UHGV virus genome: UHGV-0089399
Length of the DNA: 22,830 bases
DNA from: a virus
Reading direction: 5' to 3' (one strand)
Shown: positions 3,379 through 8,966 of the stretch, one piece after another
Position numbering within the stretch: position 1 is the first letter of the stretch
Layout of the letters: each line of letters begins with the position of its first letter
The notes under the pieces: generated by a model
Seen by the model: only the letters and a program-made list of their open reading frames with translations
The model's database searches: none
Told to the model about the DNA's origin: nothing
Program-made: the position numbers and the translations under genes

Positions 3379-3781
3379 CGTCTTTTCTCCCCGGAATTAA
3401 CTCGCGTGGATTATCGGAACGGTGATAGAGCCAGATACCAATTCGCACTGCGACAATTGCTGATACGAATGCGCCAGCAGAGAAAACAATCCCTTTCTCG
3501 AACGAGTCCTGCGTGATGGTAGGGATCAGGCTGGCTATGCCGATAAGAATTGATGCTGCTGGTTTGTAAAAAAGAAGGCCGCAGAGAAAGCTGAGCATCG
3601 ACAAGAATACGCGACGACGAATTGGATACTCTACCGCAGAGGTAACAAAAATTACCGCACCAGCAAGAGCACCGAGCGCCACCTCTGGCGGAACACCTAC
3701 GATAACCGCAGCAAGAGAGCTCACACTAAGCCATTGATTTAAAGACTCAGTTGTTATGTTAACCGACATAGCACACACCAT
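3365..3781 (-). CDS. Holin-like membrane protein
   Basis: 138 aa with several hydrophobic helices and a charged C-terminal tail ([18 protein letters not shown]). First gene of the lysis cassette. Two in-frame ATGs 4 codons apart (MVCAM). Confidence 0.5.
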   Translation of the reverse strand: MVCAMSVNITTESLNQWLSVSSLAAVIVGVPPEVALGALAGAVIFVTSAVEYPIRRRVFLSMLSFLCGLLFYKPAASILIGIASLIPTITQDSFEKGIVFSAGAFVSAIVAVRIGIWLYHRSDNPRELIPGRKDDGNA

Positions 3782-3944
3782 TTTTTTTGTACATATCGAA
3801 CCTCTTCACTTACAGGTCACCAAACACAATAAACCATATATGTTTAACCATCAGGTATTCTGAAATAACTATCAATTCATTGGTTTTTGATGACAATATT
3901 CATAAACAACCATAAATGTAAGGATGTTTATTAGTTGCCAAAAT

Positions 3945-6551
3945 TTATTTCCTGCAAACTCCAGATGATGTTAATCCATCAAAAATAACCTGCACTCTGG
4001 CAATAACAACATCAACTCCAGAAGTCGTTTCACTTGCATAACCAAGTTTTATTTTAGATACAATATCCTGAGTAAGTTCAGATATTTCAGTTTCTGCAAT
4101 GTTACCAGAGGCCATGTGATTATCGTATGCCATAGAATGAATTCCATTATTGACATCGATTGAACTAGTATGTTTGTGAAAAATAGATGGGTTTACCTGA
4201 AACGAATTTGAACCGATAAGATCAGAAGATACTCCATTCATCACTGCAGTACAGCGTGGAATATTATTATCGGTTATTGTCATATGCAGACGGTTACCAG
4301 TTAACCCCTCACCAAGTGTGACATAATACGCCAATTCTCCACCTGCATATTGTTTCCCCTCAACAATAACAGTAATCCCTCTTAATTTCTGATTAGCTAG
4401 CAAAAACTTATTACTGTCTATATAGCATTTATTTGCGGAACCAAAAACAGCCCCTTCTAAAATATCTGATGAATAGGAATAAATAAGGTCACCAGAAACA
4501 AAGGAAAGAATATCAGATACGTTTCCTTTTTTAGATAAGTTGGGAGAATAGCTATTAACTATTTCATATTGTCCTGTGATAAAATCAAGGTAAACGCCAT
4601 CAGTTTTCATCTCTTTAAAGAAAATGCTATTAAAGCATCCATCAAGAACCGGTGGATATATTCTAGAGCTTGCATAAGCTGTTGGGTGATTCTTATTATT
4701 ACCACTACCAGGCGAATAAACATCTTCGTTAGTCATTGACTTTTTAAGCTTAACAGGAATCATCGGCTGCATATCAATTTTGCAGTTCCCTGAACCACCG
4801 ATGCGAGGATAAAATAAACCACCAAACCTTACAATATTACTACTGAATAGTATTTCGTTATCGTTAAGTGTTATCTCAACGAAGTTTCCAATAAGTTTAA
4901 ATTCAACTGAAAACAAACCAAGTGGAGCAGATAATTTAACAATATTGCGCATAAAAACACCTACAGTCCCTGTTGATGCAGTATAGTGTGTGGTTTCAAA
5001 GGCAGAGCCTGTATATTTCAAGTTAATGAAATTATTATGGTATGAAGACAATTGGAATTGAATCCCAGAACTAAGGATTTCAATATCTACAAATTGAATC
5101 CTTACGGAGTAAGAATATGATAAATCTTCATATTCATAAGGCAATGTAACATCTTTTGAAATAGTTGCCCTCACATAATTACCAGAAACCACATCAACCC
5201 CATCACGTACTGCATTAAAGTAACGATTAAAATCAATAAGCCCAGCGCCAACATACTGCGCATATGAACGAGTCCATCCTGCCATTGCGTTTCGTCCATT
5301 CTGAGCTTCTAAACTGCTAAATTCAGAGTCACTTGTGGTACTTGATGGGAGGATATTTGTACAAAAAACAATTTCAGGCATTGAAGTAATATCATTCAGT
5401 TCAGCCATCAATTTAAAAAAAGTTTTCTGCGGGAAGTTACCAACATCCCAACCATCTCCGTCATTCATGCCAAAAGCAATAATAACAACATCAGGGTTAA
5501 TATCACGAATGTAATCAATCCAGCGTCTGTTCGTGTCTGAATACCATGGGTACTGTGAGTTATAAGAAGTAATTGCTGGTGTATCTTTTCCAAGGTCATA
5601 GTACCTCATTCCACCAATTGCTCTGTTAAATAAAGTAGAACTTGGGAATTTCTCTTGCAAAACTCTCTTAAGATGAGCGGCAAAAATGCTTGATCGATCC
5701 ACTGTGCTTATATTATATGGGGCACTTAAGCTGTCACCAACTAACACTATTTTTGAGTTAGGCCTTGATAATCTCTCAAGTGTTTTAGATGTGACTAAAC
5801 TGCAGGAATTAATGAACTGAGTACTATTTAGCGTCTGTTCAAGTGTATCACCAAATCTGGTACCAACGTATGATGATCCGTTGACACTTGCTAGCTTAAG
5901 GCATAAATCAGCAGTATCTGTAATTGAAAAAATAGGAACAGGACGTCCTAAACTGTCATACCCCTGAATTGAGTTTGCCCTAGAAGATGCTGATGCCATT
6001 TCGCTTACTATCTCAGGGAAGCGGAGTGTTTTAGATATGTTGCTGTTAATAACTCCTTTGATAGATGAGTCTGTATATTTCTTCGTGGAAGCGTCCTGAG
6101 GAAATAATGGATCATCAAGGTTACGAATACGATTGCCGAGTGCATCGTAGTAAGTGGCACTAAATGATGGTTTACGAAGAGCCAGCCGAGCCATGCTTTT
6201 GACTAACTGGATCAGCATCGTTAGCTTATCAAAAGCATCCTCATGCACTTCCGCAAAGAACTTACCCTGATTGCGCAGATCAGTTTCCTGTGTAACCGGT
6301 AGCTCTCGTGATATAGAAATCTTATAGCCATTGGCCAACGCCTTCGACAATATTACATTTCCACCATTGTATCCTCCGGCCCCGGTAACTATATAATCAG
6401 TATCAAGAGTCAGTACGGTGATATTTTCATGAATATCAACAACCTGCACAATCAAATCAGATTTATTGAAAACCCTAAAGGCATACGGAAACGATGTCGT
6501 AACGCCGTTACCGGTGTATTCGTTGTGGTCAACTTCGGTTGAGACCGTCAT
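3945..6551 (-). CDS. Tail fiber/tailspike with T7 gp17-like N-terminal anchor and SGNH/GDSL hydrolase (esterase-like) domain
   Basis: 868 aa. N-terminus (EYTGNGVTTSFPYAFRVF...LTLDTDYIV) resembles the conserved T7 tail-fiber N-terminal domain. Central GDS block (VLVGDSLSAPY), a conserved Gly block and a GxND block (VVIIAFGMNDG) are typical of SGNH hydrolases. GGAG ribosome-binding site upstream. Confidence 0.8.
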   Translation of the reverse strand: MTVSTEVDHNEYTGNGVTTSFPYAFRVFNKSDLIVQVVDIHENITVLTLDTDYIVTGAGGYNGGNVILSKALANGYKISISRELPVTQETDLRNQGKFFAEVHEDAFDKLTMLIQLVKSMARLALRKPSFSATYYDALGNRIRNLDDPLFPQDASTKKYTDSSIKGVINSNISKTLRFPEIVSEMASASSRANSIQGYDSLGRPVPIFSITDTADLCLKLASVNGSSYVGTRFGDTLEQTLNSTQFINSCSLVTSKTLERLSRPNSKIVLVGDSLSAPYNISTVDRSSIFAAHLKRVLQEKFPSSTLFNRAIGGMRYYDLGKDTPAITSYNSQYPWYSDTNRRWIDYIRDINPDVVIIAFGMNDGDGWDVGNFPQKTFFKLMAELNDITSMPEIVFCTNILPSSTTSDSEFSSLEAQNGRNAMAGWTRSYAQYVGAGLIDFNRYFNAVRDGVDVVSGNYVRATISKDVTLPYEYEDLSYSYSVRIQFVDIEILSSGIQFQLSSYHNNFINLKYTGSAFETTHYTASTGTVGVFMRNIVKLSAPLGLFSVEFKLIGNFVEITLNDNEILFSSNIVRFGGLFYPRIGGSGNCKIDMQPMIPVKLKKSMTNEDVYSPGSGNNKNHPTAYASSRIYPPVLDGCFNSIFFKEMKTDGVYLDFITGQYEIVNSYSPNLSKKGNVSDILSFVSGDLIYSYSSDILEGAVFGSANKCYIDSNKFLLANQKLRGITVIVEGKQYAGGELAYYVTLGEGLTGNRLHMTITDNNIPRCTAVMNGVSSDLIGSNSFQVNPSIFHKHTSSIDVNNGIHSMAYDNHMASGNIAETEISELTQDIVSKIKLGYASETTSGVDVVIARVQVIFDGLTSSGVCRK

Positions 6552-6654
6552 GTTAAATCTCCAGATAGTCGCAGCACCCGTTGCGCCGCATATCTGGTTA
6601 TTCTATTACCTGAAAAACCATATATGTATAGAAAGACTATAAATACCAATAGAT

Positions 6655-6671
6655 ATTACCTTTATGGTAAT
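6655..6671. promoter_or_regulatory. Palindromic operator-like site ATTACC-N5-GGTAAT (copy 1 of 3)
   Basis: Perfect 6-bp inverted arms with a 5-nt spacer, in the divergent region between the tailspike and the plus-strand accessory operon. Confidence 0.4.
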
Positions 6672-6709
6672 TTGCAAAACGTGCTGGATAGCAAACAAAT
6701 TATTTGATA

Positions 6710-6725
6710 CTGTATAAATATACAG
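6710..6725. promoter_or_regulatory. LexA (SOS) box, CTGT-N8-ACAG
   Basis: CTGTATAAATATACAG is a near-perfect match to the LexA consensus CTGT(AT)4ACAG. Lies about 20 bp upstream of the 6747 start and overlaps the likely promoter (TTGATA upstream). Confidence 0.6.
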
Positions 6726-6746
6726 TTATTGCATGGAGAAGATAAG

Positions 6747-7004
6747 ATGCAGCGGTATCACTATCCACTGGAAGACGGATTTACCGAAAGGATTCACACG
6801 CCGGGAGGCGTCAGGTCACTGGTGGAGGGATCGCACTTGATGAAATTACTCCGGGATCTCGATAAGGATGGATTTAATGTCGATGGCCCACTTGCCGAAC
6901 TGACTGCACTGATTAACTACGTCACCAGCTCACAGATGTCTATGCGGGATCTGCAAACACATCTCGACTATTGTGCCGAACAATTACGAAAACAAACCAG
7001 ATAA
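6747..7004 (+). CDS. Small protein paralogous to the C-terminal domain of the downstream Bro-N protein
   Basis: GGAG ribosome-binding site 8 nt upstream of the ATG. Residues ERIHTPGGVRSLVEGSHLMKLLRDLDKDGFNVDGPLAELTALINYV...MRDLQTHLDY align with RSLIHSPSGVLGLTENSLLMNLLNQLQEDGHDVSGAAAELTTMFCYI...LRDIQTHAEY of the 7319-8011 product. Confidence 0.55.
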   Translation: MQRYHYPLEDGFTERIHTPGGVRSLVEGSHLMKLLRDLDKDGFNVDGPLAELTALINYVTSSQMSMRDLQTHLDYCAEQLRKQTR

Positions 7005-7022
7005 GGTTTGCAATTACCAAGT

Positions 7023-7066
7023 GGAGTGCTTATATTTACCTTTGAGGTAAATTTACATCGCACTCC
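7023..7066. repeat. Compound inverted repeat containing palindrome copy 2 (ATTTACC-N5-GGTAAAT)
   Basis: Outer arms GGAGTGC (7023-7029) / GCACTCC (7060-7066) enclose inner arms ATTTACC (7034-7040) / GGTAAAT (7046-7052). Confidence 0.5.
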
Positions 7067-7143
7067 TCTTGTGCCATAGTAATCGGGCACTGGCAAAATC
7101 CGGTGCCGGGATTGGTCTCCCGGATTACTACAGAGGCACATAT

Positions 7144-7164
7144 GCCGCATAAGCGGTTTTTTTT
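7144..7164 (+). terminator. Weak intrinsic terminator/attenuator-like hairpin with U8 tract
   Basis: Short stem CCGC-ataa-GCGG followed by tttttttt, between the small ORF and the Bro-N gene. The stem is short, so function is uncertain. Confidence 0.35.
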
Positions 7165-7318
7165 ATGTGTAAAGCGCACCTATTCTATGGTGGGCTGTGT
7201 GGGGGCACCGAAAGGTGCGCCGGGTTCCTTTGTAGCCGGTAAGACCAACTCTGCACAGTTCACCACCATCTGATTGGTCTCAGCGGTGGTGATTAACCTA
7301 ACTACAAAGGTGATCGCC

Positions 7319-8011
7319 ATGAATACCAAACCTTCCATCTTTTCCTTTGAGTCATCCTGCCAGATCCGTATGTTCATGATTGACGGAGAACCTTGGTTTG
7401 TCACCAAAGATGTGTGCAATGCTTTGAATATTGATGTTACACAAGCGAGAAAACTTGATAAAAAAGGCTGGAACAAAAAGGGGCTGTATTCAATACAGAC
7501 CCCTGGTGGAATACAAGAACTATCCATCGTTTCAGAATCAGGTCTCTACATCCTTATTCTGCGTTGCAAAGAGGCAATGACTGAGGGAACGAGAGCATTC
7601 AGATTTCTTGAATGGGTTACAGGCGAGGTTCTTCCTCAGATCCGCCGCACCGGAAGTTACATTAAAAACTCGCTACCGCAGGAAGAACGCATAAAGATGG
7701 TTGCCGACCAGGTAGCCAACGCCACGGCGTCAGCAGTAATGCAGGCGATGAAGATAGAGAACAAAACCTACAACGCCCCGCTGAAGCCCGGCTACCGCAG
7801 CCTGATTCATTCCCCGTCTGGTGTTCTCGGCCTGACGGAGAACTCACTGCTGATGAATCTGCTGAACCAGTTACAGGAAGACGGGCACGACGTATCGGGC
7901 GCGGCGGCGGAGCTGACCACCATGTTCTGCTACATCGTCGGTGTGAGCAAATGCCTGCGTGATATCCAGACGCACGCGGAGTACATCAACGACAAAGCAG
8001 GGTTCTTCTGA
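7319..8011 (+). CDS. Bro-N domain protein (phage antirepressor-like)
   Basis: N-terminal region (FSFESSCQIRMFMIDGEPWFVTKDVCNALN...ESGLYILILRCKEAMTEGTRAFRFLEWVTGEVLPQIRRTGSY) matches the Bro-N/KilA-N-type domain pattern. AGGTGA ribosome-binding site upstream of the ATG at 7319; the track ORF begins earlier at a non-ATG codon. Confidence 0.8.
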   Translation: MNTKPSIFSFESSCQIRMFMIDGEPWFVTKDVCNALNIDVTQARKLDKKGWNKKGLYSIQTPGGIQELSIVSESGLYILILRCKEAMTEGTRAFRFLEWVTGEVLPQIRRTGSYIKNSLPQEERIKMVADQVANATASAVMQAMKIENKTYNAPLKPGYRSLIHSPSGVLGLTENSLLMNLLNQLQEDGHDVSGAAAELTTMFCYIVGVSKCLRDIQTHAEYINDKAGFF

Positions 8012-8083
8012 CGGGCGGCGGCACAGGGATGTGCCTTTAAATAATTCTGTACAGATTGCAGACTGGGGGTGAATAGCGTACTA

Positions 8084-8098
8084 TTACCTTAAAGGTAA
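8084..8098. promoter_or_regulatory. Palindromic operator-like site TTACC-N5-GGTAA (copy 3 of 3)
   Basis: TTACC (8084-8088) and GGTAA (8094-8098) with a 5-nt spacer, about 45 bp upstream of the 8141 start codon. Same architecture as the sites at 6655-6671 and 7034-7052. Confidence 0.4.
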
Positions 8099-8140
8099 AC
8101 CTGTTTTTATTTTATACCTGTAACTTACCGGAGATTAAAG

Positions 8141-8467
8141 ATGACAAAACTTGGATTCGTGATGAGAGGTCCGGTAAGAAGCGGAACTCATGCAAAGCGT
8201 AGCAAGAGTCGTATTTTTACTGGTAAGGTTGTAGCACGTAAATCAGCTATTGGCTCGTTCAATAGTGAAAATGCGGCATTGCGCCATATTTTTATCAGCA
8301 CAAAGCCAAGAGCATCCGCTGATGTGCATACAATGACTATTCCTATCACAAAGAATATAAAGCGGATAAAAAAGCTCTCATCTGCAGAATCAAAAGAGAT
8401 ATCTTTCCGCCAGCTTAACTCATTAGAAACGCATATGAAGGAAGAGGAATTCGATGTTTTTGAGTGA
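8141..8467 (+). CDS. Hypothetical basic protein (108 aa), first gene of a coupled pair
   Basis: GGAG ribosome-binding site 8 nt upstream. Lys/Arg-rich N-terminus. The 3' end overlaps the next gene by 14 nt. AT-rich relative to flanking DNA. No motif I recognise. Confidence 0.5.
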   Translation: MTKLGFVMRGPVRSGTHAKRSKSRIFTGKVVARKSAIGSFNSENAALRHIFISTKPRASADVHTMTIPITKNIKRIKKLSSAESKEISFRQLNSLETHMKEEEFDVFE

Positions 8468-8966
8468 GTATAGCGGGAAGGTTATACCTACTGGTGAGTT
8501 TAAAACTGATGACTTTCTGATTTCGCTAAAAGATGCTTTTAAACAACACTGGCGTCATGGTCATCATCCTGATCTGGGAAAAGATACTCTTTTTGAAAGA
8601 CCAGACGAAGTATTAGGTTTCCATCTCAGAAAGGTTCATGTCAATATTGGTGAATATGCATCATATTCATACTCATGTACTGAACAGTGTTGGGATGAGT
8701 GGTCATATGGATTGATTGATGAACAAGGAAATTACAGGCCAAAACCAACCAGTAACGCATATCTCATATATGCAGTCAATGAAATAAGAGATGCAGCCTT
8801 ACTAGCTTATTGGGACCCGCCCGCACACACCAAAGCTAACGCAAAAGTTTGGATGGATTCCGTATTGAATTTCACAAAATTATTTCATGAACGAACGAAT
8901 ACAGCTCCACTTAGTAGAAATGTTTATCCGTGGGATTATTCGTACAAATCCAAAAAGCCTGCATAG
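8454..8966 (+). CDS. Hypothetical protein (170 aa), second gene of a coupled pair
   Basis: GAGG ribosome-binding site inside the upstream gene; start overlaps the upstream stop region. Contains a His-rich stretch (WRHGHHPD). No recognisable family. Confidence 0.5.
   Translation: MFLSEYSGKVIPTGEFKTDDFLISLKDAFKQHWRHGHHPDLGKDTLFERPDEVLGFHLRKVHVNIGEYASYSYSCTEQCWDEWSYGLIDEQGNYRPKPTSNAYLIYAVNEIRDAALLAYWDPPAHTKANAKVWMDSVLNFTKLFHERTNTAPLSRNVYPWDYSYKSKKPA

Follow-up and report, generated by a model that had tools for sequence, protein, structure and literature searches.

The locus described here is best read against three antirepressor systems. Salmonella phage SPC32H has a switch made up of the repressor Rep, the antirepressor Ant and LexA (PDB 5D4Z/5D50), which was reportedly described by Kim and Ryu in 2013 and by Kim et al. 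in 2016. The immI operon of phages P1 and P7 comprises the c4 antisense RNA, icd and ant, and its promoter, P51b, is controlled by the C1 repressor. The third system is isrK-orf45-anrP of prophage Gifsy-1; LexA-repressed Gifsy antirepressors were reportedly described by Lemire et al. in 2011. We compared these systems with an anti-immunity locus at positions 6655 to 8011 of a 22,830-nt stretch of viral DNA (UHGV-0089399; hereafter, the window), where a first-pass annotation had proposed one SOS-controlled module consisting of a LexA box, an 85-aa open reading frame (ORF) and a gene for a Bro-N domain protein. The best explanation of the whole locus, which we consider probable, is that it holds two independent antirepressor cassettes aimed at one repressor, the first under predicted LexA control and the second under a predicted circuit of the RNAs isrK and C4.

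The region stems from an epsilon15/phiV10-like Uetakevirus prophage of Escherichia coli. The stretch tested (window positions 6560 to 8140) is 100% identical to many E. coli chromosomes and 91 to 98% identical to phages EC.W1-9, TL-2011b, vB_EcoP_ZX5 (ZX5) and phiV10, all Uetakevirus relatives of epsilon15. Part of the region is present in 542 of 5,426 complete E. coli genomes (about 10%), and in E. coli 50579417 the prophage is integrated between yfgI and guaA. The antirepressor region is flanked by the tail-fibre gene and the genes for large internal virion proteins. In RefSeq, ant is labeled "hypothetical protein," and the isrK and C4 RNAs are unannotated.

The first cassette consists of the following features.

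Positions 6685-6713, plus strand: candidate ant promoter, with a -35 element TGGATA (6685-6690), a 17-nt spacer and an extended -10 element TG-a-TACTGT (6705-6713).

Positions 6708-6727: LexA box, 20-mer TACTGTATAAATATACAGTT, matching 18 of 20 positions of the E. coli consensus and overlapping the -10 element and start of the ant promoter.

Positions 6710-6725: core of the LexA box, CTGTATAAATATACAG (CTGT-N8-ACAG), one base earlier than the first-pass annotation implied.

Positions 6747-7004, plus strand: ant, from the ATG at 6747 to the stop at 7004, 85 aa, with Shine-Dalgarno sequence GGAGAAG; PHROG 450.

The only PDB entry matched by the 85-aa protein is 5D50, through chain E (E value of 3.5e-46, residues 2 to 84 against 3 to 85), which is the "Anti-repressor protein" in the Rep-Ant complex of phage SPC32H. 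The annotated SPC32H ant is 87% identical to the small ORF by tblastn, and overall identity is about 85 to 87%. Ant has no Pfam family, and an NCBIfam scan of four proteins gave no match. By homology, the 85-aa ORF is the ortholog of SPC32H Ant, the established antirepressor of this phage group. It had been taken for a possible decoy or modulator of the Bro-N antirepressor, a role at odds with its orthology to the crystallized protein and with its occurrence alone in SPC32H and epsilon15. A passage of PMC7380047 describes SPC32H Ant as a LexA-controlled antirepressor that is made after LexA self-cleavage and inactivates the repressor by direct binding. According to passages of PMC9638917 and PMC9986798, it forms a tetramer, which engages two Rep dimers and disrupts the DNA-binding Rep tetramer.

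The near-consensus LexA box had been placed about 20 bp upstream of the small ORF, and its end indeed lies 21 nt before the ant ATG. A match of 18 of 20 positions to the 20-mer was reached in none of 100 shuffles, and the remaining 27 kb of the prophage holds nothing comparable. The core pattern CTGT-N8-ACAG occurs once in the window; by chance, at least one copy appears in 18 of 100 shuffles. Upstream regions of ant were aligned for the window, phiV10, TL-2011b, SPC32H, Enterobacter phages Tyrion and BUCT554, and two Klebsiella phages, among which Ant is as little as 61% identical. Both arms of the box, CTGT and ACAG, are kept in five of seven diverged phages, with a one-base change in both Klebsiella phages, while the 8-nt spacer drifts. 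The promoter was read from the sequence by eye, as the consensus scanner gave no call; its -35-like TGGATA and extended -10 element (TG-n-TACTGT) are likewise kept in the seven phages, including SPC32H, and the LexA box covers the -10 element. A LexA box at the ant promoter is therefore credible.

It is extremely unlikely that this box is a chance AT-rich palindrome and that ant answers to Rep alone. The recurrence of the 16-mer pattern in shuffled sequence and a Rep operator-like site (6656-6670) 15 bp 5' of the -35 element would suit such an account, but neither the score of the 20-mer nor the retention of the arms beside a drifting spacer does. Moreover, Rep lacks a cleavage domain, so that SOS induction requires a LexA-type input. 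The prediction of an SOS-linked antirepressor locus is thus borne out by the conserved arms of the box and by the citation of the SPC32H ortholog as LexA controlled (PMC7380047).

The prophage immunity repressor itself is encoded outside the window (prophage record L003, 10563-11147). Its gene, rep, was located in an E. coli chromosome 100% identical to the window over 6560 to 8140. The 194-aa protein matches chain A (Rep) of 5D50 over its full length (E value of 4e-42). It has two helix-turn-helix (HTH) domains, HTH_3 being the only match, and no Peptidase_S24 match was found even at E values up to 1. Since Rep is without an S24 autocleavage domain, RecA-assisted self-cleavage is not expected, and SOS induction requires an input such as the LexA box.

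Palindromes of the form TTACC-N5-GGTAA, putatively bound by Rep, occur at three places in the window.

Positions 6656-6670: Rep operator-like palindrome TTACCTTTATGGTAA, upstream of the ant promoter, 15 bp 5' of its -35 element.

Positions 7036-7050: Rep operator-like palindrome TTACCTTTGAGGTAA, flanked by the promoter-like sites at 7008-7036 and 7052-7080 in the isrK cassette.

Positions 8084-8098: Rep operator-like palindrome TTACCTTAAAGGTAA, 5' of a 108-aa/170-aa ORF pair; it borders the module and is not a part of it.

These three (starting at 6656, 7036 and 8084) are the exact copies in the window. When one mismatch is allowed, the window has four matches, a number reached in none of 100 shuffles (about 0.4 expected). 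Elsewhere in the prophage are eight further exact copies (12 when one mismatch is tolerated), with sites on either side of rep and in the rep-cro gap. SPC32H has 10 exact copies, three of them between rep and cro, three more downstream of rep and a single one ahead of ant. The half-sites of 6656-6670 are invariant in six of seven phages (phiV10 has one mismatch in the right half) and its spacer varies; those of 7036-7050 are unchanged in eight Uetakevirus-type loci, again with a variable spacer. At the position upstream of isrK, the lambdoid loci VT2-Sakai and Gifsy-1 have an unrelated promoter. Taken together, TTACC-N5-GGTAA is most likely the Rep operator, to which Rep would bind. Because at least 11 exact sites in the prophage and 10 in SPC32H extend beyond the rep-cro region, the data suggest that the operators form a dispersed network, as do those of the P1 C1 repressor.

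Cassette 1 therefore resembles the SPC32H switch in its Ant and Rep orthologs, in its genome position beside the tailspike gene, and in the conserved LexA box, promoter elements and upstream TTACC-N5-GGTAA. Judged by every sequence-level feature of that Ant/Rep/LexA system, it is a member. The window differs in having a second cassette of about 1 kb after ant, which SPC32H lacks (it is without isrK, C4 and Bro-N), and in a Rep about 50% identical.

The product of the second cassette has two recognizable parts.

Positions 7319-8011, plus strand: gene for the Bro-N::Ant-like protein, from the ATG at 7319 to the stop at 8011, 230 aa.

Residues 16-106 (positions 7364-7636), plus strand: Bro-N domain (Pfam PF02498, E value of 1.6e-13, 51.5 bits against a cut-off of 25.6).

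Residues 149-225 (positions 7763-7993), plus strand: Ant-like domain (match to 5D50 chain E, E value of 4.9e-14).

The Bro-N assignment of the first-pass annotation is confirmed by this Pfam match, and so, by formal alignment, is its claim that the small protein is paralogous to the Bro-N C terminus: BLASTP aligns the small protein with Bro-N residues 149 to 222 at 32 of 74 identical positions (43%), without gaps, at an E value of 8e-17. An exhaustive profile search of 1.84 billion representatives recovered only 67 proteins with an Ant-like domain (E values up to 1e-3), either as stand-alone proteins of 85 to 98 aa or with the domain at the C terminus of longer proteins. The N termini of the longer carriers are of four types, namely, Bro-N, AntA, Phage_pRha and ORF6N. 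Across the family alignment, 14 positions are invariant between Ant and Ant-like sequences. A recent tandem duplication was considered as the origin of the common domain and rejected, since identity between the two subfamilies is about 40% in each of the lineages compared (phages of E. coli, Enterobacter and Klebsiella); by sequence comparison, Ant and Ant-like are old paralogs. In addition, the top two Foldseek hits of a weak model of the Bro-N protein are 5d50_G and 5d50_H (target-normalized TM scores of 0.69 to 0.77, E values of only 0.07 to 0.1), which is supportive only of a predicted Ant fold in its C terminus.

A close homolog of this protein is ORF4 of ZX5, which belongs to the same genus, has the same position with the same isrK and C4 upstream, and is 81% identical, with a near-identical C-terminal half. 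Its Bro-N domain, in contrast, is only about 67% identical to that of the window. One AntA-type protein carries a C-terminal domain identical to that of the window. Given this identical domain and the near-identical C-terminal halves of ZX5 ORF4 and the window protein beside diverged Bro-N domains, the Ant-like domain has evidently been shuffled as a unit. When ZX5 ORF4 was overexpressed, prophage titers fell 1000-fold, from 10^9 to 10^6, and the repressor gene was transcribed less (PMC9782041). The same paper makes no mention of the RNAs, the LexA box, the small ant gene or the homology to SPC32H Ant.

We consider it most likely that the Bro-N::Ant-like protein inactivates the same Rep, by binding inferred from homology. 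The opposite effect, in which the Ant-like domain would antagonize Ant by forming mixed inactive oligomers and so set a threshold for SOS induction, is quite unlikely. Ant acts as a tetramer (PMC9638917), and the 14 common invariant positions make hetero-oligomers conceivable, but the ZX5 homolog is pro-lytic on overexpression (PMC9782041) and the domain is also fused to AntA, Rha and ORF6N, all typical antirepressor N termini. A broader proposal, which we regard as doubtful in its entirety, is that the Ant fold (about 80 residues) is a portable Rep-targeting module on interchangeable N termini, that mixed Ant/Bro-N tetramers integrate the LexA and IsrK/C4 inputs, with Bro-N perhaps serving as a DNA tether, and, as a corollary, that orf45 of Gifsy-1 is a C4 RNA and IsrK its decoy.

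Two relatives have further variants of the domain. In phiV10 (4166-4437), a frameshift divides the Ant-like part of the Bro-N gene, which is annotated as p23 (194 aa) and p22 (29 aa), reflecting either a mutation or a sequencing error. TL-2011b has a third Ant-like domain at 6780-7055 on the minus strand, 89% identical to the Bro-N C terminus and ending an opposite-strand gene, which makes three Ant/Ant-like copies in one phage.

The ant and Bro-N ORFs are separated by 315 nt, which contain regulatory features of the second cassette.

Positions 7008-7036, plus strand: promoter-like site TTGCAA-17-TATATT from the consensus scan, putative in function, whose -10 element abuts the operator at 7036-7050.

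Positions 7052-7080, plus strand: candidate isrK promoter TTTACA-17-(TG)cCATAGT from the consensus scan, ending 6 nt before the isrK 5' end.

Positions 7087-7163, plus strand: predicted isrK RNA (a1/b1 region), Rfam RF01394, 73.7 bits against a gathering score of 50.

Positions 7112-7118, plus strand: isrK b1, TTGGTCT, in the loop of the second isrK hairpin.

Positions 7128-7136, plus strand: isrK a1, CTACAGAGG (RNA CUACAGAGG), pairing with the C4 loop over 9 nt, including one G.U.

Positions 7144-7165, plus strand: isrK intrinsic terminator, formed by a stem (7144-7157) and a run of eight T ending at 7165.

Positions 7183-7270, plus strand: predicted C4 antisense RNA, Rfam RF01695, 78.6 bits against a gathering score of 45, covering model positions 1 to 87 of 87.

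Positions 7227-7235, plus strand: C4 a' loop, CCUUUGUAG.

Positions 7242-7248, plus strand: C4 b', AGACCAA.

Positions 7274-7280, plus strand: b2 in the Bro-N leader, TTGGTCT, an exact 7-nt complement of b'.

Positions 7302-7310, plus strand: a2 in the Bro-N leader, CTACAAAGG (RNA CUACAAAGG), an exact 9-nt complement of the a' loop.

The predicted C4 fold is stable, b' is an exact 7-nt complement of b1 as well, and a2 covers the Bro-N Shine-Dalgarno sequence, 9 to 17 nt 5' of the ATG. The Rfam c4-a1b1 model ("a1, b1 targets of C4") overlaps isrK in APSE-1, VT2-Sakai and Gifsy-1. No coupled leader ORF like icd in P1 or orf45 in Gifsy-1 ends at or overlaps the Bro-N ATG; an ORF at 7103-7273 stops 45 nt upstream. 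The 3' arm of C4 terminates in ...CACCACCA, and its likeness to an acceptor stem is only suggestive of processing of C4 from a precursor by RNase P.

The isrK 5' end was taken from the alignment to the Rfam model. The site at 7008-7036 was also considered as the isrK promoter and is disfavored, since 7052-7080 is better supported by comparison with relatives and by its spacing from the isrK 5' end. The latter is nearly invariant in eight loci, and a -35/-10-like pair abuts the operator in all eight Uetakevirus-type loci, irrespective of the upstream sequence. The site at 7008-7036 may be a second promoter, occluded by Rep.

A further conserved element, GGUGGUGA, is found at 7285-7292, a few nucleotides after b2, and likewise in 14 other loci, being shortened to 6 to 7 nt in PhiR47, phiP27 and phiV10. 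Its sequence complements UCACCACC, the 3' arm of the stem that closes C4, and could provide an alternative pairing in an unprocessed read-through transcript.

The pairing between C4 and its targets was compared across 14 loci from Uetakevirus phages, Hafnia and Yersinia phages, APSE-1, Stx phages and phiP27, with VT2-Sakai and Gifsy-1 scored. The a and b sequences vary among these loci, and within each phage all three copies stay complementary at the same positions, with changes in b matched between C4, isrK and the leader. When a' and a2 were compared in a cross-matrix, complements within cognate pairs were mostly 8 to 10 nt long (6 in VT2-Sakai and 7 in Gifsy-1), against mostly 4 to 6 nt for non-cognate pairs; the Klebsiella phages, which have the same specificity as the window, score as cognate. 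In phiV10, which is about 83% identical here, a has switched to CTAAAAGG (RNA CUAAAAGG) and b to TTGGCGT (UUGGCGU) in all three places. On this covarying complementarity, the C4 loops are predicted to pair with the Bro-N ribosome-binding site.

This specificity bears on what the second cassette is for. P22 Ant and P1 Ant induce heteroimmune relatives, and Citron and Schuster reportedly found in 1990 that C4 defines the heteroimmunity of P1 and P7. The Bro-N::Ant-like protein could similarly act at infection or against other phages and not in induction of its own prophage, shielding an incoming phage from resident Rep or inducing heteroimmune relatives, with C4 as a second immunity. The layout is homologous to that of P1 immI, where C4 sets P1/P7 heteroimmunity, and the a and b sequences differ between close relatives (TTGGTCT/CTACAAAGG in the window against TTGGCGT/CTAAAAGG in phiV10), with C4 changed to match. 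Overexpression of ZX5 ORF4 also reduced lysogenization during infection (PMC9782041). However, the same evidence fits self-induction, the two roles are compatible, and a common target would fit equally well with the fact that phages of E. coli, Enterobacter and Klebsiella keep an Ant-like domain beside their own Ant. We regard an exclusive role at infection or against other phages as a possibility to be taken seriously, though not as the expected one.

The independence of the two cassettes is apparent from their separate distribution. In SPC32H, ant stands alone between the tailspike and membrane-protein genes, and isrK, C4 and the Bro-N gene are absent; the records of epsilon15 and other Salmonella relatives each have one Ant-like match, and in BUCT554 one Ant match is accompanied by neither isrK nor C4. 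Where both cassettes are present, other DNA may lie between them: about 1.1 kb is inserted between ant and isrK in TL-2011b (3780-4868), EC.W1-9 has two opposite-strand ORFs (1969-2884), and Klebsiella phage ST512-KPC3phi13.3 has two extra small ORFs (2146-2604), possibly toxin-antitoxin-like. The block of promoter, operator and isrK is intact in every relative that bears such an insertion. The junction between ant and the isrK cassette is an insertion hot spot in these three phages.

The first-pass annotation had treated the two genes as one LexA-controlled operon, in which Bro-N is the real antirepressor and the small protein a decoy, a modulator or a minor second antirepressor. The genes are adjacent, lie on the same strand and share a domain, and a scan between the ant stop and isrK predicted no terminator, so some SOS-driven read-through into cassette 2 is possible. 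Nevertheless, the small protein is the crystallized antirepressor and the sole such gene in SPC32H and epsilon15, the 315-nt gap holds a strong terminator, its own promoter-like sites, a Rep operator-like site and two RNA genes, and unrelated genes, some on the opposite strand, separate the two genes in relatives. A single operon is accordingly very unlikely. Because of this terminator, the promoter-like sites, the Rep operator, the two RNAs and the insertions in relatives, we infer that the LexA box directly controls ant only and that Bro-N expression is mainly under the C4/IsrK RNA circuit.

With two cassettes, the following course of events can be proposed. In cassette 1 (6656-7004), LexA would occupy the ant promoter in the lysogen, covering the -10 element and the start. 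Upon DNA damage, LexA would be cleaved and Ant made, which would bind Rep and strip it from its many operators (in SPC32H, the Rep tetramer is disrupted), leading to prophage induction. In cassette 2 (7008-8011), the promoter-like sites flanking the Rep operator would transcribe isrK, then C4, then the Bro-N gene, and most transcripts would end at the isrK terminator. Read-through would yield C4, whose a' loop and b' would pair with a2 and b2 and mask the Bro-N Shine-Dalgarno sequence, so that no protein is made; by analogy with Gifsy-1 and P1, C4 would keep Bro-N untranslated in the lysogen. Loss of Rep from 7036-7050, perhaps together with read-through from ant, would presumably increase transcription of cassette 2. 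Abundant IsrK, carrying a1/b1 decoy copies, would then compete for C4 and relieve the block, as in Gifsy-1, and the Bro-N::Ant-like protein would be translated and probably reinforce the inactivation of Rep. Which promoter is active at which stage is likewise deduced from this arrangement. Alternatively or additionally, cassette 2 would act at infection or against related prophages, the C4 a and b sequences providing a second immunity specificity as in P1/P7.

Several points weigh against two cassettes with a common target. For this prophage, the sites and homologies are read from sequence, and the LexA control and Ant-Rep contacts of SPC32H come from secondary citations and the PDB entry. The prophage Rep is only about 50% identical to its SPC32H counterpart, and the Ant-like domain only about 40% identical to Ant, so that this domain need not bind the prophage Rep. 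Modeling of the Bro-N protein with AlphaFold2 gave a poor result (mean pLDDT of 52.7, with 67 to 85 over the last 70 residues), because the alignment spanned the C terminus only. The isrK of the window falls below the gathering score of the Rfam c4-a1b1 model (RF03163), and its a1 has one G.U pair. Finally, the putative operator at 7036-7050 lies just 5' of the candidate isrK -35 element, centered at about -44, from where Rep could act as a repressor, as an activator or as a roadblock to ant transcripts.

Cassette 2 shares with P1/P7 immI the cotranscription of C4 with its target, the complementarity of a' and b' to targets on both sides (a1/b1 upstream, a2/b2 downstream), a block imposed at the ribosome-binding site of the antirepressor operon, a main-repressor operator at the promoter (putative in the window) and covarying sequences that set the specificity. 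It differs in having no icd-like leader ORF, a2 lying over the antirepressor's own Shine-Dalgarno sequence; in the intrinsic terminator between a1/b1 (isrK) and C4; in its product, a Bro-N/Ant-like fusion; and in its phage, a chromosomally integrated podovirus.

Gifsy-1 has the same succession of isrK with its terminator, an Rfam C4 match and an antirepressor gene, and it combines LexA-controlled and isrK-controlled antirepressors in one prophage (PMC7067206, PMC4825925). There, IsrK supplied in trans lifts anrP translation about 140-fold (PMC4825925, Hershko-Shalev et al. 2016), and IsrK and the C4-like STnc1160 are strongly expressed in lysogens (PMC7067206). Unlike the Bro-N protein, AnrP has an ORF6N N terminus and gave no Ant-like match in sequence searches; the two Gifsy-1 antirepressor genes are non-adjacent, with no common domain reported, and the promoter region is without TTACC-N5-GGTAA. 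In Gifsy-1, "orf45" coincides with a full-length Rfam C4 match (34131-34316, minus strand, 69 bits). It is conserved in nucleotides and not in amino acids (PMC4825925), which fits an RNA gene. The comparison points to a C4 RNA at the site of Gifsy-1 orf45, for which IsrK would provide the a1/b1 decoys.

Overall, cassette 2 is predicted to work like P1 immI and Gifsy-1 isrK-anrP, minus the coupled leader ORF and plus a Bro-N/Ant-like product. Coliphage 186 Tum, a LexA-repressed small antirepressor acting on a repressor that RecA does not cleave, is like Ant in logic only: no sequence relationship surfaced in Pfam, PDB and PHROG searches, and both the genome context and the repressor family are different.

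Some features around the locus are also of note. Positions 185 to 1760 of the window are host DNA (yfgG, yfgH and yfgI), and prophage lysis genes start from about 1957; the window thus spans the prophage-host junction. The tail-fibre/tailspike protein (868 aa, 3945-6551, minus strand) is labeled an SGNH/GDSL hydrolase family protein in RefSeq, which suggests an esterase-type, receptor-modifying tail protein. The operator at 6656-6670 was also considered as part of a tailspike promoter on the minus strand, but no convincing -10 element was found. Upstream of the tail-fibre gene, the block TCTATTACC..AACC.TATATG at 6601-6630 is nearly invariant in seven diverged phages; read on the minus strand, it is GGTAATAGAAT, with a good -10 element (TAGAAT), and it may be the tail-fibre promoter with half an operator.

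On the other side, a 108-aa ORF overlaps a 170-aa ORF at 8141-8966, with the operator palindrome at 8084-8098 ahead of the pair and a weak -35/-10 pair, TTGCAG-17-TACTAT, read from the sequence just before that palindrome. The 170-aa ORF has a weak likeness to the YafO toxin (Pfam E value of 9.5e-4, below the cut-off) and is a YafO family toxin in RefSeq. The pair, which is present in ZX5 and EC.W1-9 and absent from phiV10 and SPC32H, looks like a toxin-antitoxin module inserted 3' of the Bro-N gene.

The LexA-Ant-Rep switch and the isrK/C4-antirepressor cassette are each already known, and the locus is mostly known biology in a new combination. A search of the literature available to us found no description of the homology between the Bro-N C terminus and Ant, of the adjacency of the two cassettes, or of a Rep operator at the isrK promoter. 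In the first place, the locus corrects a gap in annotation, as neither ant nor the two RNAs are recognized in RefSeq. Beyond this, phiV10-like Bro-N antirepressors that carry the domain of the crystallized Ant offer a testable answer to the source of Bro-N specificity. A common repressor-binding domain would explain the occurrence of the domain on four N-terminal types, once with identical sequence, and this portability of the Ant domain is a point worth following. The reading of orf45 as C4 and of IsrK as a decoy joins two literatures that do not cite each other. Lastly, with an SOS-wired and an RNA-wired antirepressor directed against one repressor, this prophage would provide a compact system for asking why phages keep both.

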